A DNA stretch of 64,000 nt, taken from contig OZ024740.1 of assembly GCA_964016885.1 (NCBI GenBank), forward strand, positions 15,438,001 to 15,502,000, written 5' to 3'. A program made the translations under genes and the position numbers. Shown here piece by piece: positions 16,990 to 58,071 of this stretch (positions are counted from its first letter, which is position 1; every line of letters starts with the position of its first letter). The notes beneath the pieces are model-generated. The model searched no databases and had not been told where the DNA came from. It saw only the letters and a program-made list of their open reading frames with translations. The DNA comes from Eledone cirrhosa (Eukaryota).

Positions 16990-17424
16990 TATCCAAAACT
17001 TTATCAATTTAGAATCTTTTTCTCAAAGGCACATATATATATATATATATACTTCTTTAAAAATATACCCATCTTTCTACCTTATTTCAAAGTTATTTAT
17101 TATACATTATATAATACTTGTTACTCATTCTATATCACTCCTATTTATCACTTCCCTTTCTTCATTTTCCCATTCTTCTCTTTTTCTTTTAATGTCTAAC
17201 CCCTAATCTGTACCTTTTCTCACTGTTGCCTAACATAGAAACAATTATTACACAATACAATACTTTCTTACTCTATATCACCTTGTAAAAATCCTTCGTA
17301 AACATAAACATTTTTTGACGTTAGATTATTCATCCTCAATTCATTATTTTTTTCTCCCTTTCATCTAACTTATTCATGCTCATCTCACAATATATCCTTA
17401 CTTACATTACTTGTTGTTCTTTTT

Positions 17425-17600
17425 AATAATACATATCAACATTTTCTTTCCATCGCACATATTATTAAACCCTTAAATATTATTCTTAATACATATTAAC
17501 TTTTTCTTTCCATCGCACATATTATTAAACCCTTAAATATTATTCTTAATACATATTAACATTTTCTTTTCATCGCACATATTATTATACCCTTCAATAT
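17425..17600. repeat. 60 bp tandem repeat x3 in the PLE 3' UTR (mirrored at ~13570-13740)
   Basis: AATACATATTAAC..TTTCTTTCCATCGCACATATTATTAAACCCTT repeated. Confidence 0.85.
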
Positions 17601-25514: not shown

Positions 25515-25623
25515 TCTATATTAAAACTTTTACACTCTGCTATGTATTGAGTACCTTACTTACTGTGGTTACTTCCGATTCAACCCGGAATAATTTACTT
25601 ATATATATATATATACGGTACAT

Positions 25624-34741: not shown

Positions 34742-34971
34742 CTTTATTTGCCACAAGGGCGCACAAGAAAAGGGGACAATACAAAGACATGCCGGGGATT
34801 TTACATACAGTCGTGTAAAAAATATAAAAAAAACAATTACAACAGTCGAAATCCCCAATAGGGAGAAAGCGCCACAAATGGGTTGTTTAATACCCCGTCG
34901 ATAGAACAACCCTCAACTCCAGGAGCGTATTGTGCAAGTGCTCCTTTGTTCCTTTTGTTCTCTTCTTTAAC

Positions 34972-37900
34972 CTACAGGCTTATAAACAGAGAAGGCCCAA
35001 TCACTCGGGCCATTTTCGCTTCATTCACCCACCTTTCAGTAAATTTACTGGGGTACAGTGCCACTCTCTCCACTCTGATTCTCCTTCTAAAGTGATACTT
35101 AAAGAAGGGAATCAATTGTTGTCCGGAGAGAAAGGCATCTGTCCTCAGTCCTCTCAATTTCGTCCAGCATATAACTTCTTTCACCATATCCACTGTACAG
35201 AGGAAAAACGCCTCTCTTTGGTTTTTGAAAGAGGCTGGCGGTTTGATCCTTACTATGGACTCGGCAGTCAACTGTATTTGTCCCATACGCGACAGCAGTT
35301 GTTCTGCATAGTTCCACAGGTCGGTTATGCCCGGGAAGTGTACAATCGCGTGCAGGACTGTTTCAATGTCCTGCGGGAATCTTGGACACGTCCTCTTGGA
35401 AGGATCCTTTGTCACGAACCGGTAGAGCTCCTCGGTAACACTGCCAGGCCAGGGACCTCTGGCAGTTGTCCATAGGTCCCGGGCGGAAAGTCCTACCAAA
35501 CAGACTAGTGAGCTCATCGTCTTCGACGCCCAGAGTCTCTCCGAGCACGTTGTCGCCCTTGTAACGTACAATCCCTCTATAGAATGTCGAAGTGCAGTCT
35601 CCACTGACTGCTGCGCCCGCTTGCCAGAGGACTGTGAGCGCCTGAGCGCATTCAATGTGCCAGGCGCCCATCGATTTCGGTCTTTTCTTCACCCAGGACT
35701 GCAGCTCCGTCAGCGAGACGAGCTGTGGGAAAGCCTGTCTCACAAACGGTGCCCACGCACGTTGGGGGTCGGTGAGGAATACCTGGAGTTGCCGCAACCT
35801 CAGCGCATGTTTGCGCACTATCAGCCACGGCATGTCCAGCCCTCCGTTGGAAGGGTGCTGACAGCAGACGGATCTCCTCACCAACGGAGCCTGCTTCTTC
35901 CACAGAAACTGGAAGAGCATGCGTTCCATCTTCATGAGGTGTTCACGGGGACAAGGCAGTAGATGACGGACGCTATGAAAGAAAGTTTTCGCCACCTTCG
36001 CTCGACCTTTTAAGGACAGTTTACACTCTGCCCACTTCTGGGTGAGCGAAAATACCTTGGCCGTGATATCGTTCCAGTTTTTCTCCATCTGGAGGTCTGG
36101 ACCGAGCCAGACCTCGAGCAATTTCACCAGTCCGTCTGTCCAGCGTCCAACGACGCTGTCGAACGTCATCTGTTTGCCTCTCCACGTACCGAGTTGCAAA
36201 CCGACAGACTTGTCCGGCTTTAGTTTTGCTCCCGTCAGCGTTTCGTATTCTTTCAGTAAGTTGCCGATCACCCCGATTTCCGAGGTGCTCGACACCATCA
36301 CCATTATGTCGTCGGCATAAGCCGATGCGCTTTGCGCAGTCCAGGTTCTAGAGGGATGCCCTGCAACAGCTCTAATTTCCGCAGTAGTGGCTCTAGAGTC
36401 AATACATATATAATGGAGGAGAGAGGGCACCCCTGTCGAATGGAACGCGTGATTGAGAACGGCCCCGATAGGTAGCCGTTCACCTTAACCCTCGAGCAGA
36501 TGCTGGTGTGCATCGCCTCGATCCAGCCTTGAAAACGGGACCGAAACTAGCCGCCTTGAGAACCGCTTCCAAGTATCGATGGTCGACCCTATCGAATGCC
36601 TTAGACTAATCCAAATTGATCAGAGCCCCACCGAAGCCGGGTTTACTACACACCATCTCTATGATGTATCGCATGAGATGGAGGTTGTCGTGTATAGACC
36701 TGGTCGGGATTGCACACATTTGCACTTTCCCTACCAGGTTCTCGACGACAAGCGCTAACCTCGTCGCTAACACCTAGGCCAAAATCTTTAACTCTGTGTT
36801 GAGTACCGTTATGGGCCAGAGAACAAGTCCGGCATACCTATGTAAAACTCATAGGGTAGACCATCTATACCGGGTGACTTGCGTTTCCCGCAGCGGCCCA
36901 GAGCGTCCCGTATCTCAGTGTCCGTGATCGGTCTTTTGCAGAACTCGGCGTCCGTGTTTGTGAGACGCGGCAGGCCATCGAGGTATGAACTAAAGTCCAT
37001 TGCCCCGTTCGGCTCACCGTCGTTCTGCTCAAACAGTCGCGCAAAGTGCCGCTGAAAGGCCGCACACATTTGCTTGGGGTCAAGTAGCACGCGTCCGTTT
37101 TGGTCTTTCAAAGACCGAATCGTGGACTTTTTGCCTCCGCCACTCGGGCCCAGCTGACAGTTTTCGCTCCTTCGTTTCCTAGAGCACGTGTTTTGCTTCT
37201 GATCACGCAGCCTTCGTGTTTCGCATCGAAGAACTGGTCCAGTGCCCTTCTCGACGCTAACACTCTAGCTGCGTTGCCACTTCTAAGTGCCTCCTCTACG
37301 TTGGCTTCTAGTTCTCTTTCTATTTTGTTTATCTCTAAGGCTAACTCTCTGTTAAACCTTATCGATTCTATTCTAGTTGCTTTCTTGAGAGAGTGCCACC
37401 ATCTATTGTTGACAATGGCTCCTGTTAACTGTTGCTTGACTAGTATACTTATCCTTTCACTGTAAACTTTACGTGCCGGCAACAACACGTTCAGCTTCCA
37501 GTATCCGGGTCCCTGTCTATGTGTTCTATCGCAGTCGACTAAGCAGACGACTAATTTGTGATCTGAATAGGCAACCATATGCATTCGTGGACAGCTTAAC
37601 ATCTCCTTGTCTCTTTCTCTAATGAAGAACCTATCTAAATACGATCTAGATGTCCCGCTGCGGTTTGCCCATGTCCACTGTGGTGCAGTCGGGACATCCA
37701 GTCGATACCTATCGGCCAGTTGGAATTGGCCGATTAAAGTTTTGAGGCTGTTGCACCCCTCTCTACTGGGACATGCTCCCACATAGTCCCATCGTGCGTC
37801 TAGGATACCATTCCAGTCCCGCACTAAAAGTAAGGAGCGAGACGTTCCCAGAAAAGATTCTAGACGCTTAAAGAAGTCTGGACGTGATTGCGATTTCCCA

Positions 37901-38242
37901 GTCTGGGCATAAACGGCCACCAGACTGAAGGCTCCACCTCCAATACTGTTCACATCTAGGACTACCAGTCTACCCTCCGGGTCCAAGTGTACTTGCTGTA
38001 TTTCGACGTCCAGGTTCTTTCTAAACATGACAGCCACTCTACCTCCACCTCCTGGCTGACAGAGATGCGTAGATCTCAAAGTCGTCGAAGATGGGGGTTA
38101 GTTGCTGCCTGTTGTGGATCCTGGACTCGGTAATGGCTATCACATCCATACCGTGTGACCTAACGTCGTTTAAAAGTTGGCCCTGTTTCCAGAGCATCCC
38201 TAGGCCAGGCACATTCACGCTTCCAACTCGTAAACTAGCCAT
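34972..38242 (-). pseudogene. Copy A ORF2 (APE-RT), disrupted, with internal deletions
   Basis: GSVNVPGL, YLDRFF, SDHKLV, KSPGIDGLPYEFY, IRQGCPLS, AYADD. Confidence 0.9.
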
Positions 38243-38283
38243 GTTGGTGAAGAAAAGTTGGAGAAAAAGGACGAAAGGTGCAC

Positions 38284-39839
38284 TTATCTTTTCGTTTCCT
38301 GGAGATCGGGTTGTTCAATCTCCATTTGGGTGCTGGATGGGGTGTTGGGTGGTGTGGGGAAACATTTTAACAGGACGCGGTTGATGGGTTTGTGGCAGGG
38401 GTTGCCTACGTCCTGTAAAAAATTATTTTTCAGGTCATTATAGGTTTCCATAGAAACCCTTATAAGTTTAAGGTGTGGAGACGATTCTGCTTTGACGAAA
38501 GTTTTTCCCTCCGTCTCCACCTTGGGGTTTTGGGAGATGACCTCCATCAAACTCTTGTTGTTTGTGTTGATGTATGCGTATTGTTGTTGGTGTTTTTGTT
38601 GTGTTGTTTTAGTTTGTTGTTCGTCCAGGAGTCTTCTTTTTATGATGGGTGCTTGTGTTTGGGGTGGTGTTGGTGTTGGTTTTGCTGGTAGGGGGATGTT
38701 TGACTGTGGTGTTGTTTGTGTTGTTGTTTTAGTCTGTGGTTGTGTGTTGGTGTTGATGATTGGAGTTTTGGGGGTTTTGTGGTGTCTCTTTTTTTGTTTT
38801 TTTAGATTTCCGCGGTTCTCCCTCTTGTTCACTTAAAGAAGGAGAAGCAGCCTCATCTGTCGTTGAATAATCATCGTCAGGAGTGTGGGGTAGGGGTATG
38901 TTGTGTGATGGTGGTGTTTCGGTGTGTGTGTTTGTGGTAGTGTCTAATGGAGTGGGTTGGGGTGGGGCTGTGTTCTTCAGGGTTGTTGTCTCTGTTTTTT
39001 CTGTTGTTTTTGGTTGAGTGGCTGTTTGTTTTGGTGTGGTTGCTCGTTTCGTCTGTTGTTGTACTTGTGGTGGTTGTGGTTGTTTTGGTGTTGGTGTTGG
39101 TAATAGTGTTTTTTTAATGATGGTGTTGTGGTGTGTTTGTGAATGATAGGAGGCTTTTAGGTGTGCTGTGCTACCACAGCGAAAGCAATGAAATTTACGC
39201 CCTTCTACCGAAATGTTTATTTTGTTGTTGTCGTCGATGACGACTTTTTCGGGTATTTTGGAGATTCTCTCCGGCCTCATTTGCATCAGAATCTCCAAAT
39301 CAGTACCCGCCCACCTTTGTCTAATAAACTTTTGTATCGAAAGAATCATATCAGTCTCTGGCTCTACGAAGGCAGCCGAAATCCACCAGATGTTAATGTT
39401 TGGTGGTATCTTTTTTTATTTTATTTTTTGTGTCCTTTTTCCCATGTATGTACGGAAAAAGGTGAATGCTTTTGACACCATTGGTGTCACAGACTGTTTT
39501 GGGGCGAGTGCCTCGCTTTTAAACAGTGCGGAAACACTTCCGTACTGTTTTCCTCGTTGGAGAAGTCAACATTTGCTAGAATTTCCTTCACGTTGGCTTC
39601 TATATCACCTTGACTAACAAATATCGGCTTTCTCGTTTTATTGGATACAGTCCTGAAGGTCACTGTCCTACGAACTGTGTCTTTTATTTCGAGGGATGAG
39701 TTAATTCTAAACCCACCCTTGTCTTCGAAAGTTACAAATTTTCTTCCTTGCTGGAGCATATCTCTTGCATTGGAGATGTCAAGATTTATAAAATCTTGTT
39801 TGTTGTTCACTGTTTCAGCGAAAGACATTTTTTGTGTGG

Positions 39840-39888
<49 letters not shown>

Positions 39889-40208
39889 ATCGTTGTTAGC
39901 CTCGGTGTTGGAAATCTCAATTCCCTGACGAGGTGAAACTTTATGTGTAGATGTATCTGTGGAGTTGTTGATGTTTTCTTTTTCATGTATATGTATATTA
40001 ATAGGTTTAATTTCTGTATGTTGTATGTTATTTTTCTCCGCTTCGACGTAGAAATTTTAAAATCTTCAAGTGGTATTTATTTCTCTTTGTTGATAGTCGT
40101 ATCCATAGCAACATCCATAGTAGCAGAAGCAGATATAACGTTAATATCTGCTTCTCTACCTCTCTCCTCTCTGTCGACGTTCTCTAGCGTTCTTTTCGAG
40201 TTATTCAT
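38284..40208 (-). pseudogene. Copy A ORF1 (gag-like), disrupted
   Basis: SFAETV, EGRKFHCFRCGSTAHL, P/T/Q-rich linker, ends EQPDLQETKR*. Confidence 0.8.
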
Positions 40209-40671
40209 GTTTTATAGTTGGCAAAATTTGATTTTTTAAAACAATTTTTTAATTAAATTTTTGCCCCTAAAGGGGCGAAAAATGGGATTACCACCCAGCT
40301 GACAATTCAGCTTGGGGGTTAATCTACAAAATGATATGTTTTTTCAAACAAATTGTTCTGGTTTTCGTATATAAATTTACAAAAAATCTTACCGGCGATG
40401 TTCCACGCGTCAGGCAGATAAAGAGATAGATAGATAATAGATAAATTTCTTTATTAGCCACAAGGGCACAAAAGAAGAGGACAAATACAAATGGGGAGTT
40501 TACATACAGGTATATGAAAATAAAACTATTAATAAAATAACAAATAACAATTGAAATCCCCAGTAGGGGGGTGGAGGCGTTATATAGGGGTTGTACACAC
40601 CCCGAAAAAATGTACAACCCTCATCTCCAGGAGCACCAAGAATGAGTACTCCCTTCCTCTTTTCCCTTAAA

Positions 40672-43600
40672 CTACAGGCTTATATAGAGAGGAGGGCTAA
40701 ATACTCGGGCCATCTTTGCCACATTCACCCACCTTTTATAAAATTTGCTGGGGTACAGCACCTCTCTCTCCATCCTGATTCTTCTTCCAAAATGATATTT
40801 GAAAAAACGAATCAGTTGCTCGCCGAAGAGAAAGGTGTCTGACCTCAGCTCTTTTAACATCGACCACCATATAACCTCTTTCACCATAGCCATAACACAT
40901 AGGAAAACCGCCTCTCCCTCGTTTTTGAAGGAGGGTGGCGGTTTGATCATGACAATAGACGCGGTGGTCAACTAGATTGGTCCCACCCGCGACAATAGTC
41001 GTTCTACATAGCCCCACAGGTCTGTAACGCCCGGGTAGTGTACAAATGTGTGCGCGGCTGTTCCTCGTCGCGCACGCATCTCGGACAGATCTTTTTCGAA
41101 AGGTCCCTGCCCGGGCGCCCGTGTCTGCAGAGCTTGTCTCAAACTGGTAGAGCTCCTCAGTAGCACTGCCAGGCCAGGGACTTTTGGAAGTTGTCCATTG
41201 GTCCCGGGCGGAAGGTCCTACCGAACAGACTGGCCAGTTCATCTTCCTCTACGCCTAGAGTTTCTCCGAGCGTGTCGTCGCACTTGCTGCGGACCAACCC
41301 TCTATAGAATGTCGAAGTGGAGTTTCCACTGATCGCCGAGTTCGTTTGCCAGAGGACTGTGAGCGCCTGAGCACATTCGATGTGCCAGTCGCCCATTTTC
41401 CTCGGTCTTTGCTTGACTCAGGACTGCAGCTCGGTCAACGAGACGAGTCGTGGGAAGGCTCGCCTCACGAACGGGGTCCACACCGGTTGTCCGGTGAGCC
41501 ATACGTGGAGGTGCCGCAGCCTGAACGCGTGTTTGCGCATCGTCAGCCACGGCATCCCCAGCCCTCCGTTTGAAGGGTGTTGGCAGCGGATGGATCTTCT
41601 CACCAAAGAAGCCCGTTTCTTCCAAAGGAATTGGAAGAGCGGTGCGCTCCATTTTGGTGAGCGTTTTGGCTGGACAAGGCACGGTGGTCAAGCGGTAGTA
41701 GATGGCGGACGCTATAAAAGTGTTCGCCACCTCCGCTCGACCTTTCATGGATAGTTTTCACTCGGCCCACTTCTGGGTGAGCGCAAACACCTTAGCCGTC
41801 ACCTCGTTCCAGTTCTTCTCCACCTGGAGGTCCGGACCAAACCAGACCCCGAGCAGTTTTACCGGTCCTTCCTTCCAGCGTCCGACGACGCCATCGGAAG
41901 GCATCGGTTTGTCTATCCACGTTCCGAGTTGCAAACCGACGAATTTGTCTCGGTTCAGCTTCGCTCCTCTGAACCTTTCGTATTCCCCAATTTGCGAGGT
42001 GCACGACACCATTACTGTCACGTCGTCGGCGTAGGCCGACGCCAGTTTTCGCAGTCCCGGTTCCAAAGGGATGCCCTGCAATAGCTCCAACCTCCGCAGT
42101 AGTGGCTCGAGAGTCAGTACGTACAGAAGGGAGGAGAGAGGGCATCCCTGTCGGATGGATCGCGTGATATGGAACGGCTCCGAAATGTAGCCGTTCACCT
42201 TGACGCTTGAGCAGATGTTGCTGCTGTGCATTGCAGCAATCTAGCCCCTGAACACGAGTCCGAAGCCTGCCGCCTCGAGCACCGCATCCAGGTAACGATG
42301 CTTAACCCTATCGAAAGCCTTAGACTGATCCAAGTTGATCAGGGCCCCACCGAAGCCGGGTTTACACCCTACTCTCTCTATGATGTATCGCATGAGGTGG
42401 AGGTTGTCGTGTATGGACCTGGTCGGGATTGCGCATGTCTGCGCTTCTCCCACCAGGTTTTTGACGACAAGCGCCAGCCTCTTTGCCAACACCTTGGCCA
42501 AAATCTGTAACTCTGTGTTGAGCAGAGTTATGGGCCGGAAGTTTCCTATGTCATCCTCCTTATTCTCGTCCTTCCTGACTAACGTGACTACGCCATTGGT
42601 CACAGGACTGGGAATTATCCCGTTCTGCTGCCAGTTGCAGTAGACCGCTCCCAGGAGACCGGAGAACAAGTCCGGCATTGCTACGTAAAATTCGTAGGGT
42701 AGACCGTCGAGACATGGAGATTTGCGTTTGCCGCATTGGCTCAGCGCGTCCTCTATCTCAGCGGCCGAAATCGGCCTTTCGCAAAACTTCGCCTCGCTGT
42801 CCGAGAGTCGCGGTAGGCCGTCGAGGTATGGACCGAAATCCATAGCTCCTCCCGGCGCGCCGCCGTGCCCGAACAGTTGAGCAAAGTGCCGCTGAAAGGC
42901 CGCGCACATCTGCTTCGGCTCACGTATCACGCATCCGTCTTGGTCATTCAAAGAACGAATCGTGGACTTGTTGCCACTTTTCGCCTCCGTCACTCGGGCC
43001 CAGCTAACGGCTTTGGCTCCCTCGTTTCCCAGAGCACGTATTTTGCTTCTGACAACGCAGCCTTCATGCTTTGCGTAGAAGAACTGGTCCAAGGCCGTTC
43101 TCGTCGCTAGCACGCTGGCTACGTTGCCACTCCTAAGTGGCTCTTCTACTTTATCTACCAGTTCCTTTTCGGTTTTAGTTCTATCTAACACTAATTCTTT
43201 ACTAAGACCTATCGAGTCTAATCTAACTGCCCTCTTGAGAGAGTACGACCATCTGTTGTTGACAATGGCCCCCGTCAAGTGCTGCTTAACTAAAGTGCTA
43301 ATCCGTCTACTGTAGGCTTTGCATGTCAGTAACGACAAGTTCAGCTTCCAGTAGCCGGGTCCCTGTCTATGGGTTTTGTCAAGGTTGACTAAGCAGGTCA
43401 CTAATTTATGATCTGAATAGGCAACCATGAACATTTGTGGACAGCTTAACATGTCCCTATCCTTCCTTCTCACTAGAACCCTATCTAGGTACGATCTAGA
43501 TGTTCCGCTGATATTAGTCCACGTCCACGGTGGCACAGTCGGAAAATTTAGTCGATATCTATCGGCCGATTAACTGTTTGAGGCTGTTACACCCCCTCTA

Positions 43601-44072
43601 TCGGGACATGCTCCCACATAGTCCCAACGTGCATCTAGGATTCCATTCCAGTCCCCCACTAACAGCAGGGAGCGGGACGTTCCCTGAAAAGTCTCTAGAC
43701 GTTTGAAGAAGTCTGGCCGCAGTGCCCCGGATGGGGTATAGCGGCCACCAGCCTGAAGGCTCCACCTTCACTACTGTCAACGTCTAGGACCACCAGTCGA
43801 CCCTCCGGGTCCAGATGTACCGTCTGTGTTACGAGGTCCAGGTGTTTCCGCAGCAAAACGGCAACCCCACCCCCACCTCCCGGCTGACAGAGAGATGCGT
43901 AGATCTCAAAGTCGTCGAAGATGGTGGCCAGTTGTCGCTCGCTGTGGATCCTGGACTCGCAAATGGCTACTACATCCATACTGTGCGACCTGAGGTCATT
44001 TAAGTGTTTGCCCTGTTTCCAGGGCATCCCCAGGCCGCGTACATTCACACATCCAACTCTTATATTGGCCAT
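40672..44072 (-). pseudogene. Copy B ORF2, disrupted
   Basis: GCVNVRGL, NFRPITLLN, LDQSKAFDRV, IRQGCPLS, AYADD. Confidence 0.9.
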
Positions 44073-44112
44073 GTTGGTGCTGAAAAGTTAAAAGAAGAGG
44101 AAAAGTAATCAC

Positions 44113-46107
44113 TCACCTCTTCGTCTCCTGGGGACCAGGCTGAACAATTTATATGGGGGTGTTGGAGGGGTTGTTTGGTGGGGTGGTGGCCTCTGGAGGG
44201 GTGGGGACAGAGATGTTTGGTGGGGAGGGGGTGTCTGGTGGGATGGGGGTGGTGGTGGGGAAACATTTTAACAGGACCCGATTGTAGGGTTTGACGTTGG
44301 GGTTACTTACGTCGTTAGGAAATTTTTCTTTTAACTGTTTATGTGTGTCCATGGAGGTCCTAATCATTTTAAGATTAGGAATTCTCCGAAGAGTGTGTAA
44401 AAGTTTTCCCTTCGTTCTCCACCGAAGGGTTTTTATATATGGTGTCTGTTAAAGTTTTATTGTTAGTATTTATGTAGGTGTAACATTTTTGTTGTGTTGG
44501 GTTGCTTTTTGTCTGTGGTTCTTGTGTGTGTTTACGTTTTGTAGTAGGTGTTTTGTTTTCAGGAGGAGTTGTTTTTGTTTGTGCTGTTTGCGTCGCTTGT
44601 GTTGGTGTTTGTGTGTTTGTTACATTTTTGTTTGTGTTATGTCTTTTCTTTTTTCTTTTTACTGGTCGGAAATGCTCTCCCTCATCGTCACTGGGTGACG
44701 ATGATGAGGCCTCATCCGTGTTGTTGGGGGAGGGGTACATTTTGGGGAGCTGTTATGTGTGTGGGTGTTTCTGGAGTTGTTTTAGGTGGGACTGTGTTTG
44801 TCGTTTGCTTTGTTGTCACTATTTTTTTTTATGTTGTTGTTGTGGTGATGGTGATTGCTGTGCTGGTGTTGCAGGTGTTGGCAGTAGTGACTTTTTTGGC
44901 TAGTTAGCCGAGGACAGGAAGCTCTCAGGTGACCCCAGCTTAAGCAGTGGTAACATGAGGGCCGCCTACCCTCGACCGAAATGTTTATGTATATAAGCCC
45001 ATCCAGCAACACACGTTCCGGGATACTAGCTATTCGTTCTGGTGTCATTTGGACCAGAACTTCCAGGCTAGTTCCGCTGAACTGGTCGCTGAAGGACTTA
45101 CCTACCGATATTATATAGTCTGTTTCGAGGTTTAAAAATCTACATAGTACCCACCAAATATCAATATTTGGTGTGATACTTTGGATTTTTATTTGCTGTG
45201 TTCTTTTCCCCATGTAAGTGGGGAAAAGGGTGAACAGCGGTGACACGATTGGCGACACAAAATATTTCTGTGCCGTCAATTGGTCTTTCATTAGAATGGA
45301 TAAACTCCCGTAGAGTCTACCCTTCTGAATAAAAGCAATGTCTTTTAAGGCATTTTTTAAAGCCAACTCAATTTCGCCTTGTGAAAGTCGGTTTTCGTGT
45401 TTTGTTTGAGATTGTCCTGAAAATCACAGTTTTCAAGGCAGCTTCTCTTCGCAAATCTGGGGGAGAGTTTATGGAGGATGATCCGGTCTCCCCAAAAGTT
45501 ACATATTGCTGGCGTTATTCAAAAGCTCATTTGCATTCGAAATATCTACCGGAGTGTAGCTTACCGTTTTCTTTACGGTTTGCGCAAACGATATTTTGTC
45601 GTTTACTTCCTTGTTGCAGTTATTGGTCTTGTTGTTGTTATTATTATTCTTATTGTTGATGTTGTTTTCGTTTTTTCCGTTGTTGGTGTTGTTGTTGTTG
45701 TTGGTTGTGGTTTTGTTGTCGTTGTTGTTCTTCTGGTTCTCGTTGTCACTGTTGTTGTTGATGGCGTTGTTTTGGTTTGTGCCATTCACAGTTTTCGTGT
45801 TGGTGGTGCTGGTGTTGTTGTCAGGGTGTGTTTTAAACATATCGAAGTGTTTCAACGAGGTGGTGCCAGCTGCTTCTTGGCTTGACAGTTTTACCATCCC
45901 TCCACCACCTCTGTCTAATTGTTGGTTGACAGATTTGATGTTGTTGTTGTTTTTGTTGCTGTTGTTGTTACTGTTGTTGTTGTTGGTGATAGCAGCAGGC
46001 AGACAGCCTTCACCTGCTACTAGTGCTGTGGAAGGTGAGATTAACAGCCCATCTCCACAATTCTCTGATGTGTTTTTCGTGAAGATGAGGTCAAAGAATT
46101 TGGCCAT
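44113..46107 (-). pseudogene. Copy B ORF1, disrupted
   Basis: SFAQTV, FPTYMGKRTQ, EGRRPSCYHCLSWGHLRASC. Confidence 0.8.
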
Positions 46108-46543
46108 TTTGGCTATATTCAAAATTCCGGTAGAAACTTTATGGGATTTCTCCGTTTTTAGCCCTGATGGGGTTATTATTTGGGGTTGCTACCACCTACA
46201 CAGTGTAGTGTGGCAGCTTATCTATAAAATGGTGTAAGAATGTAGATTCAGTTCATGCAATCCGAGATAGATAGATAGATAATTTTCTTTTTATTTGCCA
46301 CCAGGGCATCAAAAGGTGGGACAAGTACAATGGGAGGAGTTTACATAACAAGGCGTCCTCAATAAGGAGGAGGCAATAACAAAATATAAAAATAAAATAA
46401 AATATAACAAAATAAAATTTATAACAAAATCCTCAATAGAGAGGCGCCTTGGGGGGTCGCACACACCCCCGAAAAAAAGTGTGCAACCCTCCTCCTCAGG
46501 AGCACAGAGAGGGGGTGCTCCCTTGGTCTTTCATCTTCCTCAC

Positions 46544-49500
46544 CTATAGTCTGATGTAGAGTGAAGGCCCATTCACACGGGCCATTCTCGCCTCTTTCAC
46601 CCATCTTTCATAGAAACGGCTGGGGTGCAGCACCTCTCTCTCCATCCTGATCCTTCTTCCGAAATGATATCGGAAGAAACGGACCAGTTGTTGGCCAGAG
46701 AGAAATATGTCTGACCTCAGTCCTTTCAGACGCGTCCACCATACAACCTCTTTCGCCATGGCTATTACACACAGAAACACCGCCTCTCCTTCGTTTTTGA
46801 AGAGGGGAGGCGGCTTGATCGTTACAATAGACTCGGTGGTCAACCGGATCGGTCCCACCCTTGACAGCAGTTGTTCGACATAGCCCCATAGATCAGCAAT
46901 GCCCGAGCAGTGTACCAATGCGTGTGCAACGGTTTCCTCGTCGCACACGCATCTGGGACAGATCTTTTTCGAGGGGTCCCTACCCGGGCGCCCGTGTCTG
47001 TAGAGCCTTTATCGAACGGACAGAGCCCTTCTGTAGCACTGCCAGGCCAGGAACCTCTGGAAGTTATCCATGGGTCCCGGGCTCAATGTCCTACCGAACA
47101 GGTTGGCCAGTTCGTCTTCCTCCATGCCTAGGGCTTCTCCGAGGGTGTCGTCGCACCTGCTAACCACCAGCACTCTATAGAATGACGAGGTGGATTCTCC
47201 ACTGACAGCCGGGTCCGCCTGCCAGAGAGCCGTGAGCGCCTGGGCACACTCGGTGTGCCAGGCGCCCAGTTTTCTCGGTCTTTGCTTGACCCAGGATTGC
47301 AGCTCGGTGAGTGAGACGAGTCTGAGAAAGGCTCGCCTCACAAACGGGGCCCACACCGGTTGACCGGTGAGGAATACCTGGAGGTGCCTTAGCCTTAATG
47401 CGTGTTTACGTATCATTAGCCACGGCATCCCCAGCCCTCTTTTCGAAGGGTGTTGACAGCAGATGGATCTCCTCACCATAGGAGCCAGCTTCTTCCAAAG
47501 GAATTGGAAGAGTGCGCGCTCCATTTTGGCGAGCGTTTCCCTTGGGCAAGGCACAACGGTCAGGCGGTAGTAGATGACGGACGCTATATAGGTGTTCGCC
47601 ACCTCCGCCCGACCTTTCAGGGACAGTTTGCACTCGGCCCACTTCTGGGTCAGTGCAAACACCCTGTTCGTTACCTCACCCCAGTTCTTCTCCACCTGGA
47701 GGTCTGGTCCGAACCAGAACCCGAGCAACTTCACCGGGCCCTCCGTCCAGCGCCCGACGACGCCATCGGAGGGCATCGATCTGCCCCTCCACGTGCCGAG
47801 TTGCAGACCGATCGACTTGTCCCGGTTCAGCTTAGCCCCTGTAAACCTTTCGTACTCCTCCAGTAAGGTGCCGATCGCCCCGATTTCCGAGGCCGTCGAC
47901 ACCATTACTGATATGTCGTCGGCGTAGGCCGACACCGCTTTCCGCAATCCCAGTTCCAACGGGATGCCCTGCAACAACTCCAACTTCCGCAGCAGTGGCT
48001 CTAGAGTCATTACATACAGAAGGGAGGAGAGAGGGCACCCTTGTCGGATGGACCGCGCGATTTCCAACGGCTCCGAGAGGTAGCCGTTCACCTTGACCCT
48101 AGAGCAGATGCGGCTGCTGTACATGGCATTGATCCAGCCCCTGAAAACGGGTCCGAAGCCTGCCGCCGCTAACACCGCATTCAGGTAACCATGGTCGACC
48201 CTATCGAACGCCTTAGATTGATCCAAGTTGATCAGGGCCCCACCAAAGCCGGGTTCGTTCCCAACCCTCTCTATGATGTATCGCATGAGGTGGAGGTTGT
48301 CGTGGATGGATCTGGACGGGATAGCACATGTCTGCGCATCTCCCACCAGGTTGGCAACGACAAGCGCCAACCTCTTCGCTAGCACCTTGGCCAAAATCTG
48401 TAACTCTGTATTTAGCAGAGTTATGGGCCTGAAATTATTTATATCGTCCCCTTTGTTCTCGTCCTTCCTCACTAGCGTAACTACGCCCTTGGTCACAGCA
48501 CAGGGAATTCTCCCGTTCTGTTGCAAGTTGCAGTAGACCGCCTCGAGGAGTTCGGGGAACAAGTCCGGCATAGCTAGATATAGTTCGTATGGAAGACCAT
48601 CGAGACCCGGGAATTTGCGTTTGCCGCATTGGCTCAGCACGTCCTCTATCTCAGCGGCTGAAATTGGCTCCTCGCAGGACTTCGCCTCCCTGTCCGAGAG
48701 ACGCGGCAGGCCATCGAGGTATGGACCGAAGTCCATTTCCCCAACCGGCTCCCCGCCCCTTCCGAACAATCTGGGAAAGTGCTTTTGAAAAGCCTCGCAC
48801 ATCTGCTTAGGTTCAAGGATCACCCGTCCATCCTGGTCTCGCAAAGACCGGATAGTGGATCTACTCCCTCTTTTGGCTTCTGTCACGCGGGCCCAGCTAA
48901 CAGCTTTGGTTCCCTCGTTTCCCAGAGCACGTATTTTGCTTCGGACGATGCAGCCTTCGTGTTTCGCGTCGAAGAACTGGCCCAGGGCCGTTCTCGACGC
49001 TAGCACTCTGGCCACGTCGCCGCTTCTAATTGCCTCTTCTACACTATCTACCAACTCCCTTTCCTTCCTATTTCTATTTGAGGCTAACTCCTTACTAAAT
49101 TCTATAGAGACTACTCTAATCTCTCTTTTGAGAGATCCCCACCACCTGCTGTTGACGATGGCGCCCGTCAACCGCTCCTTAACTAAAGTGCTAATCCGGT
49201 CCCTGTAAGCCTTATTTGCCGGTAAGAACAAGTTGATCTTCCAGTAACCGGGTCCCTGTCTATGCGCTCTGTCAAGGTTGACCATGCAGGTCACTAACTT
49301 GTGGTCTGAATGGCCAACCATGCGCATTTTTGGACAACTCAAAAAGTCCTTATCCTTAATTCTAACTAAGAACCTATCTAGGTACGACCTAGATGATCCG
49401 CTACGATTTGCCCAGGTCCAGGTTGGCGCAGTCGGAAAATTTTGTCGATATCTATCGGCCAGGTCAAATCGACCGATTAACCCTTTGAGGCTATTACACC

Positions 49501-49981
49501 CCTCTCTATCGGGACAGGCCCCTACGTAGTCCCAGCGTGCATCTAGGATACCATTCCAGTCCCCCACTAATAGCAAGGAGCCGGACGTCCCTAGAAAAGT
49601 CTCCAGACGATGGAAGAAGTCCGGCCGCATTGACCCGAAAAGGCCGTAGGCGGCTACCAACCTAAACGTTCCGCCTTCACCACTGCCAAGGTCCAGAACC
49701 ACTAGTCGACCCTCCGGGTCCAAATGTACTATCTGTTTTGCGAGACCCAGATGTTTTTGCAGCAGAACGACAACCCCACCCCCACCTCCGGGCTGACAGA
49801 GAGATGCGTGCATTTCAAAGTCATCAAAGGTGGGGGCCAGCTGTCGCACGTTGCTGATCCGGGCCTCGCAAATAACCATCACATCTATACGTTGTGACCT
49901 GAGGTCATTTAGAAGCATTGCTTGCTTCCAAGTTGAGCCCAGGCCACGCGCATTTAGACACCCTACTCTTAGCATTGCCAT
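46544..49981 (-). pseudogene. Copy C ORF2: APE endonuclease, RT and C-terminal CCHC; single in-frame TAA at 47009-47011
   Basis: 998-aa ORF continues in the same frame into CPRCVCDEETVAHALVHC and 46544-46948. Confidence 0.93.
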
Positions 49982-50005
49982 GTTGGTGGTGAAGAGAAAA
50001 GGCAC

Positions 50006-51952
50006 TTACCCCTCTGCGTCCCGGGTATCGGGCTGCACAATTTCCATGAGGGTGGGGGATGGGTTGTTGGGTGGGTGGTGGTTTCTGGCGGGGTGGGGAC
50101 GGAGGTCTTTGGTGGAGAAGGGGTGTCTGGTGGGGTGGGGATGACTTGGGTGGAGGTGCCTGTGGTGGGGAGGCCTTTGTAGAGGACGCGGTTGATTGGT
50201 TTCACGCAGGAATTCCTCACGTCCTCTACAAATGTTTCTTTTAGGGATCTATAAGTTCCTATAGGGACCCTGATCAGTTTTAGGTTCATTTTTTTGTTTT
50301 TGTTGGAGCTATCCAAAGTTTTCCCTTCGGTTTTGACCAAAGGGTTGTTTCTGATGGTCTCCATCAGTGTTCTATTTTCTTCGTTTATGTAAGTGTATGT
50401 GTACTTTTCCTGTGTTGTGTTTGTTTTTGTTTGTGGTTCCTGCACGTGTTTTCTCTTTGTTGTGGGTGTTTTGTTTTCGGGAGGGGGAACTTTTGTTTGT
50501 GATTTTTGTGCTGTTTGTGCTGGTGTTTGTGTGTTTGTTTAGTTTTTGTTCATGCGGTTCTTTCTTTTTATTCTTTTCACGGGTTGGAAGGGTTCCTCCT
50601 CATCGCCGCTGGGTGCCGTCGATAGGGGTTCCTCATCCGTGTTGATGGGTAGGGGTATGTTTTGGGGTTCTGTAGTGTCTGTGTGTGTTTTTGTATTTGA
50701 TTTGGGTGGGGAGGAGTTGGGTGGAATATTGTTCTCTGTTGTTTTTTCTTGTTGTCGTGGTGGTGGTGGTGGTGGTGGTTGTGTTGTTATTTGTGGTGTT
50801 GGTAAAAGTGGAGTTTTTTTTGTCAATTGAGGACAGGCAGCCCTTAGGTGACCTCTGCTTGCGCAGTGGTAACATGCGGACCGCCTACCCTCAACCGAAA
50901 TGTTTATGTAGGTCTGTCCATCCAGAGGTACTCTCTGTGGGATTTTCATTATACGTTCTGGGCTCATCTGCACCAGAATTTCGATGCTAGTCCCACTAAA
51001 TATATCTCTGGAGGATTTTCCTACTGAGATCAGTGTCTTGTTCAAGGTCAATTAGGCCATAAAGTATCCACCAAATATCTACTTTGGGTCTTATACATGT
51101 AATTTTTATTTTTGCGTTCTTTTTCCCATGTATGTAGGGAAAAATGTAAAATGGGTGGACACAATGGGCGCGATGGAATATCTTTGTGCTGTTATGTTGT
51201 TTTTCATTAGCACCGAGATGCTGCCGAAAAGTTTGGCTTTCTGAATAAATAAAATGTTATCCATGTGGTTCCTTAATACTAGCTCAATCTCACTCTGAGA
51301 TAGTTGAGCTGGTTTTTTTATGCATTTAAAATTGTCCTGAAAACCACCGTGTTCAGGGCATTTTCTCTCCTTAGTTCTTGTGGTGAATTTATGCTAAATG
51401 ACCCATTGGGTCCAAAAGTCACATATTGTTTAGCATCTTCCAACTTTTGTTTCGCGTTGGTTAAATCCAAAAGTTGAAATATTTCCGTTTTTTTTACGGT
51501 ATCAGCAAAAGAAATTTTGCTGTTGTTGTCACTGTTGTTTGTATTTTCTTTGGTGTTTGTGTTGACATTTTTTTCCTTTTGATTGGTATTGTTGGATGTG
51601 TTTTCAATTTTTTCATTTTCTGTATTTTTTGGTGTCTGTTGTGGGCTGTTATTTTCATTTTTTGTTGTGTGAAATTCCCTTTCTTTACGAAAGGAAGTGT
51701 TTACTACATATGTGACGTTTGTGTTGTTGTTGTTTTTGTTGTCTTTATTGTTGCTGTTGTTGTCGTTGTTGTTGTTGTTTTCAGTTTCTTGTATAGTTGT
51801 GGCTACATCAAGTTGTCGGTCAGCGGGTGGAGAAATTCTTCCCCTGGCTGACCTCTGCCTTTGGCATCTGCTGCTGTGACAGTGGCAGGGGGAAGCTGTG
51901 AGTATGACTTCCCTTTTCTTCCTTTGAATGTTGGTGAAGATGCTTCAGCCAT
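50006..51952 (-). pseudogene. Copy C ORF1, disrupted
   Basis: EGRRSACYHCASRGHLRAAC; ends MEIVQPDTRDAEG*. Confidence 0.8.
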
Positions 51953-52420
51953 TTTTATCAAAATAGGATTTTTCGAAAGTTAAATTTTTACAACACTATT
52001 TCGCCTAAAGGCGTAGAATATTTTGAGAGACTGACCAGATCAAAATTTGACCTGGCAGTCCCTCTACAAAATGGTACGAAAATGAACGTTTACAGTTCAC
52101 AATTTCCAGATAAATTTAAACGAAACTTACCGAGCGAGCTCAGCACATGTGTCCATCGTAAACGATATAGATACATAGATAGATAGATTTCTTTATTAGC
52201 CACAGGGGCGCAACAAGAAAAGGGGACAATACAAAGACATGCCGGGGATTTTACATACAGTCGTGTAAAAAATATAAAAACAAACAATATCAACAATCGA
52301 AATCCCCAATGGGGGGAGGCGCCACAAATGGGTTGTTTAATACCCCGACAATAGAACAACCCTCAACTCCAGGAGCGTGTTGTGCAAGTGCTCCTTCTTC
52401 CTTTTGCTCTCTTCTTTAAC

Positions 52421-55400
52421 CTACAGGCTTATAAACAGAGAAGGCCCAATAACTCGGGCCATTTTCACTTCATTCATTCACCTTTCAGTAAATTTACTGG
52501 GGTGCAGTGCCTCTCTCTCCACCCTGATTCTCCTTCTAAAGTGATACTTAAAGAAGGGAATCAATTGTTGTCCGGAGAGAAAGGCATCTGTCCTCAGTCC
52601 TCTCAACCTCGTCCACCATATAACTTCTTTGACCATAGCCACCGTACAGAGGAAAACCGCCTCTCTTTCGTTTTTGAAAGAGTCTGGCGGTTTGATCCTT
52701 ACTATGGACTCGGCAGTCAACTGTATTTGTCCCATACGCGACAGCAGTTGTTCTGCATAGTTCCACAGGTCGCTTACGCCCGGGCAGTGTACAATTGCGT
52801 GTAGAACTGTTTCAATGTCCTGTGCACATCTTGGACACGTCCTCTTGGAAGGATCCCTGCCAGGGCGTCCGTGCCTGTAGATCTTGTCACGAACCGGTAG
52901 AGCTCCTCGGTAACACTGCCAAGGACCTCTGGAAGTTGTCCATAGGTCCCGGGCGGAAAGTCCTACCAAACAGACTGGTGAGCTCATCGTCTTCGACGCC
53001 CAGAGTCTCTCCGGGCACGTCGTCGCCCTTGTAACGTACAATCCCTCTATAGAATGTCGAAGTGGAGTCTCCACTGATTGCTGCGCCCGCTTGCCAGAGA
53101 ACTGTGAGCGCCTGAGCGCATTAAATGTGCTAGGCGCCCATCGTTTTCGGTCTTTTCTTCACCCAGGACTGCAGCTCCGTTAGCGAGACGAGCTGTGGAA
53201 AAGCCTGTCTCATAAACGGTGCCCACACCGGTTGGGGGTCGGTGAGGAATACCTGGAGATGCCGCAGCCTCAGTGCATGTTTGCGCATCATCACCCACGG
53301 CATTCCCAGCCCTCCGTTGGAAGGGTGCTGACGGATCTCCTCACGGATCTCCTCACCAGCGGAGCCTGCTTCTTCCACAGAAACTGGAAGAGCATGCGTT
53401 CCATCTTGGTGAGGTGTTCACGGGGACAAGGCACGGCAGTCAAGCGGTAGTAGATGACGGACGCTATGAAAGTGTTCGCCACCTCCGCTCGACCTTTCAA
53501 AGAGAGTTTGCACTCTGCCCACTTCTGAGTGAGTGCAAACACCTTGGCCGTGACCTCGTTCCAGTTTTTCTCCACCTGGAGGTCTGGACCGAACCAGACC
53601 CCGAGCAATTTCACCGGTCCATCCGTCCAGCGTCCAACGACGCTGTCGGATGTCATCGGTTTGCCTCTCCACGTACCGAGTTGCAACCCGACAGACTTGT
53701 CTGGGTTTAGTTTTGCTCCCGTCAGCGTTTCGTATTCTTTCAGTAAGTTGCCGATCACCCCGATTTCCGAGTTGTTCGACACCATTACCGTCACGTCGTC
53801 GGCATAAGCCGACGCCGCTTTGCGCAGTCCCGGTTCTAGAGGGATGCCCTGCAACAGCTCCAATTTCCGCAGTAGTGGCTCTAGAGTCAATACATACAGA
53901 ATGGAGGAGAGAAGGCACCCCTGTCGAATGGAACGCGTGATTGTGAACGGCTCCGTTAAGTAGCCGTTCACCTTGACCCTCGAGCAGATGCTGGTGTGCA
54001 TCGCCTCGATCCATCCTCTGAACACGGGACCGAAACCGGCCGCCTTGAGAACCGCTTCCAAGTATCGATGGTCGACCCTATCGAATGCCTTAGACTGATC
54101 CAAGTTGATCAGAGCCTCACCGAAGCCGGGTTTACTACCCACCCTCTCTATGATGTATCGCATGAGGTGGAGGTTGTCGTGTATGGACCTGGTCGGGATT
54201 GCACACGTTTGCACTTTCCCTACCAGGTTCTCGACGACAAGCGCCAACCTCGTCGCTAGCACCTTGGCCAAAATCTTTAACTCTGTGTTGAGCAGAGTTA
54301 TGGGCCTGAAGTTGTTAATTTCGTCCCCCTTGTTCTCGTCTTTCCTGATCAGCGTTACTACGCCCTTGCCTGCAGAACTGGGAATTCTCCCGTTCTGCTG
54401 CCAATTGCAGTAGACGGCTTCGAGGACGCCAGAGAACAAGTCCGGCATGCCTATGTGAAATTCGTAGGGTAGACCATCGAGACCGGGGGACTTGCGTTTC
54501 CCGCAGCGGCCCAGAGCGTCCCGTATCTCAGTGTCCGTGATCGGTCTTTCGCAGAACTCGGCGTCCGTGTTCGAGAGACGCGGCAGGCCGTCGAGGTATG
54601 AACTAAAGTCCATTGCCCCGTTCGGCTCACCGTCGTTCTGCTCAAACAGTCGCGCAAAGTGCCGCTGAAAGATCGCGCACATTTGCTTGGGGTCAAGTAG
54701 CACGCGTCCGTTTTGGTCTTTCAAAGACCGAATCGTGGACTTGTTGCCACTTTTTGCCTCCGCCACTTGGGCCCAGCTGACAGCTTTCACTCCTTCGTTT
54801 CCTAGAGCACGTGTTTTGCTTCTGACCACGCAGCCTTCGTGTTTCGCATCGAAGAACTGGTCCAGTGCCCTTCTCGACGCTAACACTCTAGCTGCGTTGC
54901 CACTTCTAAGTGCCTCCTCTACCTTGTCTACTAGTTCTCTTTCTATTCTGTTTTTTTCTAAGGCTAACTCTCTGCTATACCCTATCGATTCTATTCTAAT
55001 TGCTTTCTAGAGAGAGTACCACCATCTATTGTTGACGATGGCTCCCGTTAACTGTTGCTTGACTAGTCTACTTATTCGTTCACTGTAAGCTTTACGTGCC
55101 GGCAACGACACGTTCAGCTTCCAGTATCCGGGACCCTGTCTATGTGTTCTATCACGGTTGACTAAGCAGACGACTAACTTGTGATCTGAATAGGCAACCA
55201 TGTGCATTCGTGGACAGCTTAACATCTCCTTGTCCCTTTCTCTAATGAAGAACCTATCTAAATACGATCTAGATGTCCCACTGCGGTTTACCCACGTCCA
55301 CTGTGGTGCTGTCGGGAAATCCAGTCGATACCTATCGGCCAGTTGGAATTGGCCGATTAAAGTTTTGAGGCTGTTGCACCCCGCTCTACTGGGACATGCT

Positions 55401-55867
55401 CCCACATAGTCCCATCGTGCATCTAGGATACTATTCCAGTCCCCCACTAAAAGTAAGGAGCAAAACGTTCCCAGAAAAGACTCTAGACGCTTAAAGAAGT
55501 CTGGACGTGATTGCGATTGCCCGGTCGGGGCCTAAACGGCCACCAGTCTGAAGGCTCCACCTCCGATACTGTTCACGTATAGGACTACCAGTCTACCCTC
55601 CGGGTCCAAGTCTACTTGCTGTACTCCGACGTCCAGGTTCTTCCGAAACATAACAGCCACTCCACCTCCACCTCCTGGCTGACAGAGAGATGCGTAGATC
55701 TCAAAGTCGTCGAAGATGGGGGTTAGTTGCTGCCCGTTGTGGATCCTGGACTCGGTGATGGCTATCACATCCATACTGTGTGACCTAAGGTCGTTTAAAA
55801 GTTGGCCCTGTTTCCAGGGCATCCCTAGGCCACGCACATTCACGGTTCCAACTCGTAAACCAGCCAT
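52421..55867 (-). pseudogene. Copy D ORF2, disrupted
   Basis: GTVNVRGL, GDWN, KSPGLDGL, NFRPITLLN, AYADD, CPRC..H..HC. Confidence 0.9.
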
Positions 55868-55908
55868 GTTGGTGAAGAAAAGTTGGAGAAAAAGGACGAA
55901 AGGTGCAC

Positions 55909-57820
55909 TTACCTTTTCGTTTCCTGGAGATCGGGTTGTTCAATCTCCATTTGGGTGCTGGATGGGGTGTTGGGTGGTGTGGGGAAACATTTTAACAGGA
56001 CGCGGTTGACGGGTTTGTGGCAGGGGTTGCCCACGTCCTGTGAACATTTAATTTTTAGGTCTTTATAGGTTTCCATAGAAACCCTTATAAGTTTAAGGTG
56101 TGGAGACGATTCTGCCTTGACGAAAGTTTTGCCCTCCGTCTCCACCGTGGGGTTTTGGGAGATGACCTCCATCAAACTCTTGTTGTTTGTGTTGATGTAT
56201 GTGTATCGTTGTTTGTGTTTTTGTTGTGTTGTTTTAGTTTGTTGTTCGTCCGGGAGTTTTCTTTTTATGGTGGGTACTTGTGTTTGGGGTGGTGTTGGTG
56301 CTGGTTTTGCTGATAGGGGGATGTTTGACTGTGGTGTTGTTTGTGTTGTTGTTTGTGTCTGTGGTTGTGTGTTGGTGTTGGTGATTGGAGTTTTGGGGGG
56401 TTTGTGGTGTCTCTTTTTTTGTTTTTTAGATTTCCGCGGTTCTCCCTCTTCTTCACTTAAAGAAGGAGAAGCAGCTTCATCCGTCGATGAATAATCATCG
56501 TCAGATGTGTGGGGTAAGGGTATGTTGTGTGATGGTGGTGGTGTTTTGGTATGTGTGTTTGTGGTAGTGTTTGATGGAGTGCGATGGAGTGGGGATGTAT
56601 TCTTCAGGGGTGTTGTCTCTGTTTTTTCTGTTGTTGTTGGTTGAGTGTCTGTTTGTTTTGGTGTGGTTGCTCGTTTCGTCTGTCGTTGTACTTGTGGTGG
56701 TGGTGGTTGTTTTGGTGTTGGTGTTGGTAATAGCGTTTTTTTATGATGGTGTTGTTGTGTGTTTGTGGACAAGGGGCTTTTAGGTGAGCTGTGCTACCAC
56801 AGCGAAAGCAATGAAATTTTCGTCCTTCTACCGAAATGTTTATTTTGTTGTTATTATCAATAACGACTCTTTCGGGTATTTTGCAGATTCTCTCCGGTTT
56901 CATTTGCAACAGAATCTCCAAATCTGTGCCCGCCCACCTTTGTCGAGTAGATTTTCGTATCGAAAATAATTATGTCTGTTTCTGGCTCTACGAAGCCAGC
57001 CAAGATACACCAGATGTTAATGCTTGGAGGTATGTTTTTTATTTTTATTTTTGTGTCCTTTTCCCCATGTATGTAGGGAAAAAGTTGTATGCTTTTGACA
57101 CTATTGGTGTCACAGAGTTTTTGGGGGCGAGTGCCTCGCTTTTAAACAGTACGGAAACACTTCCGTACTGTTTTCCTCGCTGAAGAAAATCGACATTTGC
57201 TAGAATTTCCTTGAAAGAATCTTCTATATCTGCTTGATTAACAAATGTTGGCTTTCTTGACGAATTTGACACAGTCCTAAAAGTGACTGATCGGCGGTTT
57301 GTGTCTTCCTTTATTTCAAGGGGTGAGTTAATTCTAAACCCACCTCTTTCTTCGAAAGTTACAAATTTTCTCCCTTGCTGGAGCATATCTCTTGCGTTGG
57401 AGATATCAAGATTTATAAAATCTTGTTTCTTGTTCACTGTGTCAGCGAAAGACATTTTCTTTTTTTGTGTGGTGTTGCTGTTGATGATGTTGTTATCGTT
57501 GTTGGAAATCTCAGTTCCTTGTTGAGGTGAAACTTTATGTGTAGATGTATCTGTAGAGTTGTTGATGTCTTTTTCATGTGTATGTATGTCAATGGGTTTT
57601 TTTGCTGTGTTTTCCTGTGTGTTATTGTTATTTTTTTCCGCTTCGGCGGTAGAAATTGTAAAATTTTCAAATGTTAATATATTTTTTTCTTTTGTGACAG
57701 TTGTATCTATGGCGACGTCCATAGTAGCAGAAGCAGATATAACGTTAATATCTGCCTCTTTCTCTCTCTTTTTTCTATTAACGTTCTCCAGCGTTCTAGT
57801 GTTGCTCAAGTTATTTACTT
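55909..57820 (-). pseudogene. Copy D ORF1, disrupted
   Basis: SFADTV, FPTYMGKRTQ, CFRCGSTAHLKAPC, ends EQPDLQETKR*. Confidence 0.8.
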
Positions 57821-58026
57821 TGTAAAATCTGATATTTTAAAACAAATTTTTAAAATAAAATTTTCGCCCCTACAGGGGCGAAAAATGGGATTACCACCCT
57901 GCTGACAATTGAGCTTGGGGGTTAATCTACAAAGTGTTGTGTTTTTTCAAACAATTAGATCGGTTTTTTGCATAGAAATTAACAAAAAAGCTTACCGGCG
58001 ATGTTCCACACGTCAGACAGAAAGAG

Positions 58027-58071
<45 letters not shown>

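Follow-up and report, generated by a model that had tools for sequence, protein, structure and literature searches.

A head-to-tail array of four copies of a long interspersed nuclear element (LINE) was found on the minus strand, between positions 34745 and 58030, of a 64,000-nt stretch of the Eledone cirrhosa genome (contig OZ024740.1, positions 15,438,001 to 15,502,000; referred to below as the window, whose own numbering is used throughout). The copies follow one another in the order D, C, B, A and are of a type with two open reading frames, ORF1 and ORF2. An earlier note on this DNA had proposed that splice signals are built into the stop codons of both, bracketing ORF2 as a single intron. 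The comparisons described here, made with sequences alone, suggest that the donor at the ORF1 stop is real and probably selected and that the splice layout is wider than was then seen; the acceptor is a candidate, and the excision of ORF2 a prediction.

All four copies are broken. Element D (52185..58030) is near full length, with ORFs interrupted by stops and frameshifts. In element C (46275..52170) ORF2 (49981-46544) is open but for one in-frame stop and gives endonuclease and reverse transcriptase (RT) matches and a weak C-terminal zinc-finger match, and ORF1 gives a weak zinc-knuckle match. The 5' start of element B (40435..46255) falls within the intron-like stretch of the 5' untranslated region (UTR) described below, and its first donor is thus absent. 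Element A (34745..40420) is decayed and terminates in (TC)n(TA)n. A and D constitute one subfamily (mostly 91-98 % identical in ORF2), and D, C and B, with 66-88 % identity per 200 ORF2 columns, represent three subfamilies.

The array copies belong to the L1/Tx1 group of non-LTR retrotransposons (LTR, long terminal repeat), with an apurinic endonuclease (APE), an RT and a C-terminal zinc finger. ORF2 matched the Pfam families RVT_1 (4e-25) and Exo_endo_phos (4e-8), as well as zf-RVT at a value below the cut-off (0.005), and its closest solved structure was L1 ORF2p (8e-46, versus 4e-19 for R2). The zf-CCHC match in ORF1 (E 0.002, 18.6 bits against a cut-off of 20.8) came from one of seven ORF1 pieces, and the motif itself is visible; a CCHC zinc knuckle in ORF1 is a feature of the Tx1 clade. 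All five array boundaries, at this single locus, consist of (TATC)n or (TC)n, as in the tract joining D to C (52170..52188, minus strand) and similar ones at C-B, at B-A and flanking D, without a poly(A) tail. Such a microsatellite target fits the preference of the Tx1 clade; the RT tree described below covers unnamed elements.

The donor motifs that the earlier note had placed at the ORF1 stop were all reproduced. D carries AAG/GTAAGT (55907..55915; the slash marks the cut, with the first intron base at 55912), a 9/9 match to the consensus that includes the stop TAA (55911-55909) and is followed by a 41-nt pyrimidine-rich spacer between the ORF1 stop and the ORF2 AUG at 55867. The corresponding sites are GGG/GTAAGT in C (50004..50012, cut at 50009; 7/9, with a 24-nt spacer to the AUG at 49981) and GAG/GTGAGT in B (44111..44119, cut at 44116; 8/9, stop TGA, with a 40-nt spacer to the AUG at 44072). 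In A the site has decayed to AAG/ATAAGT (38282..38290, cut at 38287) by a G to A change of the first intron base. The claim of a common phase also held, the cut falling after the second base of the last ORF1 codon in all four copies. On the sense strand this GTRAGT is the sole one in the 5.85 kb of D, one of two in C and one of three in B, and it is among the best donors of the last two.

Conservation of this donor across divergent subfamilies, which the earlier note had emphasized, is present but constitutes weak evidence of selection inside the window. D, C and B are still identical at 191 of 345 four-fold degenerate ORF2 sites (55 %) and at 36 of the 60 columns preceding the donor, and therefore the three subfamilies are not independent evidence. 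By our own arithmetic, six of seven donor bases would be kept across D, C and B with a chance of about 0.1, the constraint on the stop codon being ignored. Only two aligned GTRAG sites are common to the three, the second lying inside the ORF2 coding sequence. The window by itself cannot show selection on the donor.

Evidence from outside the window came from a scan of genome contigs that returned 50 loci, 38 of them in one record (G001), with tandem arrays of a related LINE. The set of relatives comprised 37 stretches from 18 contigs (C2 and C16 in part, C1 excluded). The record is titled as a bacterial metagenome-assembled genome; its small contigs C3-C19 (L081-L116, L119, L123, L131-L165) contain long tandem arrays of intact LINEs, whose units are joined by short spacers differing from array to array, and given their microsatellite-rich flanks the arrays are probably animal host DNA. 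A quick RT tree grouped the window copies with the main array family and with a third lineage (contig C13) in one clade with an SH-aLRT support of 100, and the path from the window copies to the relative measured about 1.1 substitutions per site. ORF2 of the relative is about 41 % identical to that of the window, and the ORF1 cores are 24 % identical, with tails that cannot be aligned (E 0.07). The tail of the window ORF1 had no homologue among 32 candidates, and ORF1 of the relative had 65 matching proteins, mostly sharing one conserved tail.

In the main relative family AAG/GTAAGT, a 9/9 donor, follows all 65 ORF1 ends one base beyond the stop (two in one copy). The site is thus not part of the stop codon, and its phase differs from that of the window copies. 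The 65 ends (64 under another de-duplication) are near-identical and were treated as one observation. With five GTRAGT sites in 6440 nt, the chance of finding one within 15 nt of the ORF1 stop is about 0.02 by our arithmetic. In the 6.4-kb unit the three top donors are those at the 5' end, at the stop of ORF1 and shortly after the stop of ORF2. The control set was drawn from 92 out-of-clade loci, 27 of which had an intact ORF2 with a callable start; none of the 27 reached 8-9/9 within 70 nt before the ORF2 start, and GTRAGT occurred in one. The donor of the relative, together with the other intron-like signals in both lineages, bears out the claim of a donor at the ORF1 stop, which is probably real and under selection.

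A second set of splice signals was detected upstream of ORF1. Element D contains a predicted 69-nt 5'UTR intron (57927..57995, minus strand as for all array features), CCG/GTAAGC ... TTTGTAG/A, located about 30 nt from the 5' end. Predicted introns of 67 nt in C (52064..52130; TCG/GTAAGT ... TTTTGTAG/A) and of 69 nt in A (40324..40392) correspond to it, and B retains the acceptor (46222..46240; TTTTATAG/A), its donor having gone with the 5' end. The donor is thus present in three of the four copies and the aligned acceptor in all four, 67-69 nt downstream in D, A and C; both align across copies though the 5'UTRs are only about 50 % alike. Among the relatives, 19 distinct sequences were found after a terminal AATAAA, and 14 full 5' ends were left after exclusion of three array ends and two sequences lacking the full 5' end. 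A 5' donor GTAAGT or GTAAGA was present in 13 of these, with widely different UTRs, and was missing from C13. In 6 of the 13 sequences (L157-L160 and L156 among them) a hairpin pairs the donor with its perfect complement, located 40-80 nt downstream, which could regulate access of the U1 small nuclear ribonucleoprotein (snRNP).

The relatives further carry what looks like a complete intron in the 3'UTR. All 61 of 61 copies of the main family have GTRAGT 14 nt downstream of the ORF2 stop, and the acceptor about 250 nt beyond this donor has an intact AG in 60 of 61 and ranks second of 267 AGs; in C13 a 9/9 donor lies 40 nt past the ORF2 stop, with an acceptor tied first of 291. The strong acceptor, 185-265 nt beyond the ORF2 stop, is common to two alternative donors. 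In two relative lineages the 3'UTR contains two AATAAA signals, one internal and one terminal (at approximately 8913 and 9155 in L084, and 9967 and 10259 in L163), the internal one sitting behind the 3'UTR acceptor. The window lineage has a single terminal AATAAA and no 3'UTR intron. As predicted from these motifs, the splice architecture is wider than the earlier note saw, with the ORF1-stop donor common to the window copies and a distant lineage, the 5'UTR donor in both, and a full, intact-looking 3'UTR intron in two relative lineages. In a clade laid out with introns, it is more plausible that the donor at the ORF1 stop is really used.

The acceptor proposed by the earlier note, built into the ORF2 stop, fared less well. 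The stop is TAG in all four copies, at 52421 (D), 46544 (C), 40672 (B) and 34972 (A), the next base being T instead of G in B. The pyrimidine stretch before it is real but moderate: by a crude pyrimidine score made for this analysis, 126 AGs that align among D, C and B were ranked, and the TAG came fifth, behind four AGs internal to ORF2. A join at this position would lengthen ORF1 by 18 residues in D, by 56 in B, by 27 in A and by none in C, and the regeneration of the ORF1 C-terminus described for C holds there but makes C the exception among the four copies. The purine-rich stretch following the TAG is present but aligns poorly among copies. The TAG is also not conserved across the clade: in the relative it is TCG in 6 of 61 copies and ranks 62nd of 267 AGs, and the third lineage has TAA. 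The end of ORF2 is set at the protein level: 7 of 31 homologues with callable tails (out of 150 matches plus P0001) end in Leu 18 residues past the last Trp, several of them without pyrimidine-rich codons. The stop TAG of C doubles as a 7/9 donor (TAG/GTGAGG) and may instead echo the post-stop donor of the relatives.

A better candidate acceptor is more likely the AG situated 7 nt upstream of the stop in all four copies, ending at 52428 in D (ORF2 end, 52421..52445), 46551 in C (CAG; 46538..46570), 40679 in B (40672..40697) and 34979 in A (34972..34996). This AG lies directly 3' of the pyrimidine run and was kept through a Ser/Arg change. It matches the donor in phase, and ORF1 would finish on the last codon of ORF2 and its stop in every copy.

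The spacer between ORF1 and ORF2 was considered separately. A mini-intron confined to it was rejected (it would be 37 nt long in B, and its AG is absent in D, A and C). B alone has a strong acceptor-like site directly before the ORF2 AUG (44080..44103), ranked first of 371 AGs in this copy; D, A and C lack an acceptor AG at that place. Joined to a 5'UTR donor, the site in B could yield an ORF2-only mRNA like human SpORF2.

Taken together, these data are best explained by use of the donor at the ORF1 stop to splice out ORF2, giving a copia-like ORF1-only mRNA with a predicted acceptor at the ORF2 end or in the 3'UTR, an explanation to which an even chance is assigned. Unspliced RNA would serve both as the ORF2 message and as the template for retrotransposition. 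In the relatives the donor would best be partnered with the strong 3'UTR acceptor described above. Since the window lineage is without a strong 3'UTR site, its acceptor would probably lie at the ORF2 end, at the upstream AG more likely than at the stop TAG. A donor placed at the stop would leave the ORF1 protein nearly unchanged and put the exon junction within about 50 nt of it, where it would be tolerated by nonsense-mediated decay, which accepts junctions within roughly that distance of a stop codon. The benefit would be ORF1 protein in excess over ORF2 protein, as retroelements need. From these signals we infer both that splicing occurs and where it ends.

A more extended form of this explanation is offered tentatively, at somewhat less than even chance. 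The clade may be arranged like a spliced host gene, with a 5'UTR intron and with ORF2 as one intron whose removal gives an ORF1-only mRNA safe from nonsense-mediated decay, alternative splicing separating the two jobs of the transcript. In the relatives the 3'UTR intron and the internal poly(A) signal would shorten the spliced messages before the tail needed by the RT. Only unspliced RNA would then be copied, and the introns would survive retrotransposition.

A number of observations weigh against splicing out of ORF2. In the third lineage, C13, there is no 5' donor and only a 5/9 site at the ORF1 stop, which overlaps the ORF2 start. One relative subfamily keeps the 5' donor and has no good acceptor before ORF1, as judged by eye, which indicates that donors outlast acceptors. 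The phase match of the upstream AG would arise by chance in one case of three, and the AG ranks ninth of 126. Ser or Arg is second to last in only one of the seven homologues with the same end, which means that the phase-matched AG is not clade-wide. The ORF2-end candidates, ranked fifth and ninth, fall below or among the ORF2-internal sites at 55679, 53047, 55447 and 53372, and no conserved branch point was seen by eye at the window acceptor. The splicing products of human L1 are described as dead ends (PMC5860796; here and below, statements on published work refer to the available part of each source). Finally, retrotransposed copies precisely lacking ORF2, proposed as a check by the earlier note, were found neither at the 65 ORF1 ends in the arrays of the relative nor among the four window copies. 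This absence is weak evidence, since an ORF1-only RNA could be copied only in trans, and L1 proteins act preferentially on the RNA that encodes them (PMC5860796). One protein, P0281, in which an ORF1 tail is fused in frame to the last 187 residues of ORF2, was rejected as a spliced product; ORF1 residue 612 is joined to ORF2 residue 969, away from the predicted sites, and the copy is read as an internal deletion.

Several of these points would also be expected if the donors were landing sites for U1 snRNP that act without removal of ORF2 and influence the full-length RNA in its transcription, the choice of its 3' end, its export or its stability. Such a role would account for donors being better kept than acceptors (the lost ORF2-stop AGs and the poor 5'UTR acceptor of the relatives), for the mediocre acceptors of the window, for the missing ORF2-less copies and for the hairpins over the relatives' 5' donors; in addition, U1 suppresses termination in the Arabidopsis Ty1/Copia element EVD (PMC5580714), and human L1 retains an old, rarely used 5'UTR donor (PMC5860796). 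It is the main competing explanation and is considered clearly less probable than excision. Suppression of premature polyadenylation, which the earlier note had named as the alternative, lacks a target, as no sense AATAAA or ATTAAA occurs in any of six ORF2s (0.7-1.7 expected in each), the 3.3-3.5 kb that follow the ORF1-stop donor are free of canonical poly(A) hexamers in six of six units, and the remaining donors have well-formed acceptors. The ORF1-stop donor could alternatively be spliced to another acceptor, whether within ORF2, in the 5'UTR of the following tandem copy or at a downstream host exon. The four higher-scoring internal AGs of D, C and B speak for this, as do the 5'UTR acceptors of C and B, which score 12.3-12.6 versus 9.7-11 at the ORF2-end sites in copies lying head to tail. 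Internal acceptors, however, would presumably give long out-of-frame 3' tails, the site in a following copy would be a poor target of selection if most copies are 5'-truncated or solitary, as most genomic LINE copies probably are, and the best acceptors of the relatives are located past ORF2; this possibility is accordingly given a low probability.

Lower still is the probability that all the motifs are by-products, the donor reflecting a TAA or TGA stop with a favoured following G inherited by the subfamilies, and the TAG simply coming after Pro-Ser-Leu-Phe codons at a C-terminus fixed by the protein. A purine after the stop codon is known to favour termination. The identity of 55 % of the four-fold sites, the lack of enrichment of the heptamer GGTRAGT in the window (12 observed versus 14.6 expected), the ORF2 end common to homologues and the absence of a strong ORF1-stop donor in the third lineage all agree with such an origin. 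It does not account for the donor of the relative, which is 9/9 and outside the stop codon, for the location of that unit's top three donors, or for the absence of such a donor from the 27 out-of-clade elements. For the TAG acceptor alone, the by-product reading may well be right.

Further features were noted in the course of the analysis. The 3'UTR of D (52190..52420, with equivalents in C, B and A) contains two stem-loops followed by AATAAA at 52197; the stem arms remain paired in D, C and B (folding z-scores 0.97, -0.91 and -1.52, singly not significant), and this stretch is likely the region recognized by the RT. No Rfam family matched at its gathering score in the array or in six stretches of the relatives, which indicates that no ribozyme is present. 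Another broken LINE with endonuclease and RT matches, unrelated to the array, lies at 6696-9385 on the minus strand of the window. The region 13568-17600 contains a 535-codon ORF (15013-16620) without a Pfam match, which may be Penelope-like, flanked by two inverted arrays of a 60-nt repeat, and Cys-rich ORF pieces similar to it are located at 25594, 29171-30494 and 31465. In the third lineage ORF1 and ORF2 are joined by an overlapping stop-start TAATG (L163, 6062-6067), which in other LINEs serves as a signal for translation coupling. A very distant element family (L048, L050 and L080) has an 8/9 donor 17 nt past the stop of a long ORF. Contigs of four sequencing runs (X1-X4), none recorded as RNA, were mapped jointly to C and D: the 15 joints listed of 579 were all cross-mapping between the two copies and did not include the predicted ones, 12 of 471 joint inserts were listed, and no change at a donor occurred among the 40 variant rows listed of 1410, so that these data weigh neither way. 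Depth decreased from 3' to 5' in X1-X3, and in X4, from another sample, the ORF1 bins of D were deeper than its ORF2 bins, but contig depth does not allow parts to be ranked and was given no weight. None of 85 pattern matches in viral contigs was confirmed.

In the usual view, a single bicistronic RNA is the message for both ORF1 and ORF2 of a LINE, and splicing has been described as harmful to L1 (PMC5860796). If the proposal is true, a LINE clade that keeps its donors across saturating divergence would represent a second, convergent copia-type answer to the problem of the ratio of structural protein to enzyme. It would suggest a direct route to half-L1 elements, and it would call for an explanation of how an element that is copied by way of RNA keeps its introns.

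Among published systems no LINE with ORF2 as an intron was found; the search was short on subscription papers, Repbase reports and supplements, and an earlier mention is therefore possible. An annotation of octopus repeats includes L1-Tx1 families, without mention of splicing or introns in its available part (PMC13282606), and the splicing reported for TART occurs in antisense RNA (PMC1636488). Kibi and Koshi of the Tx1 clade, also LINEs of the L1 group, have their insertion sites in (TC)n or (TTC)n microsatellites, similarly to the window copies in (TATC)n or (TC)n, but they come from teleost fish and were compared by target, not by tree; the available part of their description does not mention splice sites (PMC4494074). 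Human L1 likewise belongs to the L1 group of LINEs; it has a conserved donor close to the 5' end and gives spliced RNAs, SpORF2 and SpIREs, but its known splices remove the 5'UTR or ORF1 and not ORF2, and the accounts, as far as available, mention no donor at the ORF1 stop (PMC2896524, PMC5860796). HAL1 (half-L1) elements are ORF1-only derivatives of L1, the very product expected from a retrotransposed spliced RNA; they differ in forming separate genomic families, whereas no ORF1-only copy occurred at the ORF1 ends surveyed here (PMC5753468).

Two LTR elements come closer in design. In the shGAG system of Arabidopsis EVD one U1 site has two effects: it permits a gag-only RNA to form, and in the unspliced RNA it suppresses a poly(A) site close by (PMC5580714). 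The order donor, acceptor, internal AATAAA and terminal AATAAA is the same in the 3'UTR of the relatives, but the EVD intron is short and its stop is created by splicing, and the window lineage, with one terminal AATAAA, has no such 3'UTR intron. In Drosophila copia all of POL is spliced out as a single intron, about 3 kb long (Yoshioka et al. 1990, cited in PMC5580714), in agreement with the precedent for a spliced gag-only mRNA invoked by the earlier note. Copia resembles the present proposal in that the enzyme region is one intron, the short mRNA encodes the structural protein only and has a normal 3' end, and the unspliced RNA is the genome. It differs in being an LTR element with a single gag-pol ORF and demonstrated splicing, whereas the window contains a two-ORF LINE with a donor at an already existing stop and with splicing that is predicted. 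The window element may therefore work like copia, while not being a member of the copia-type system.

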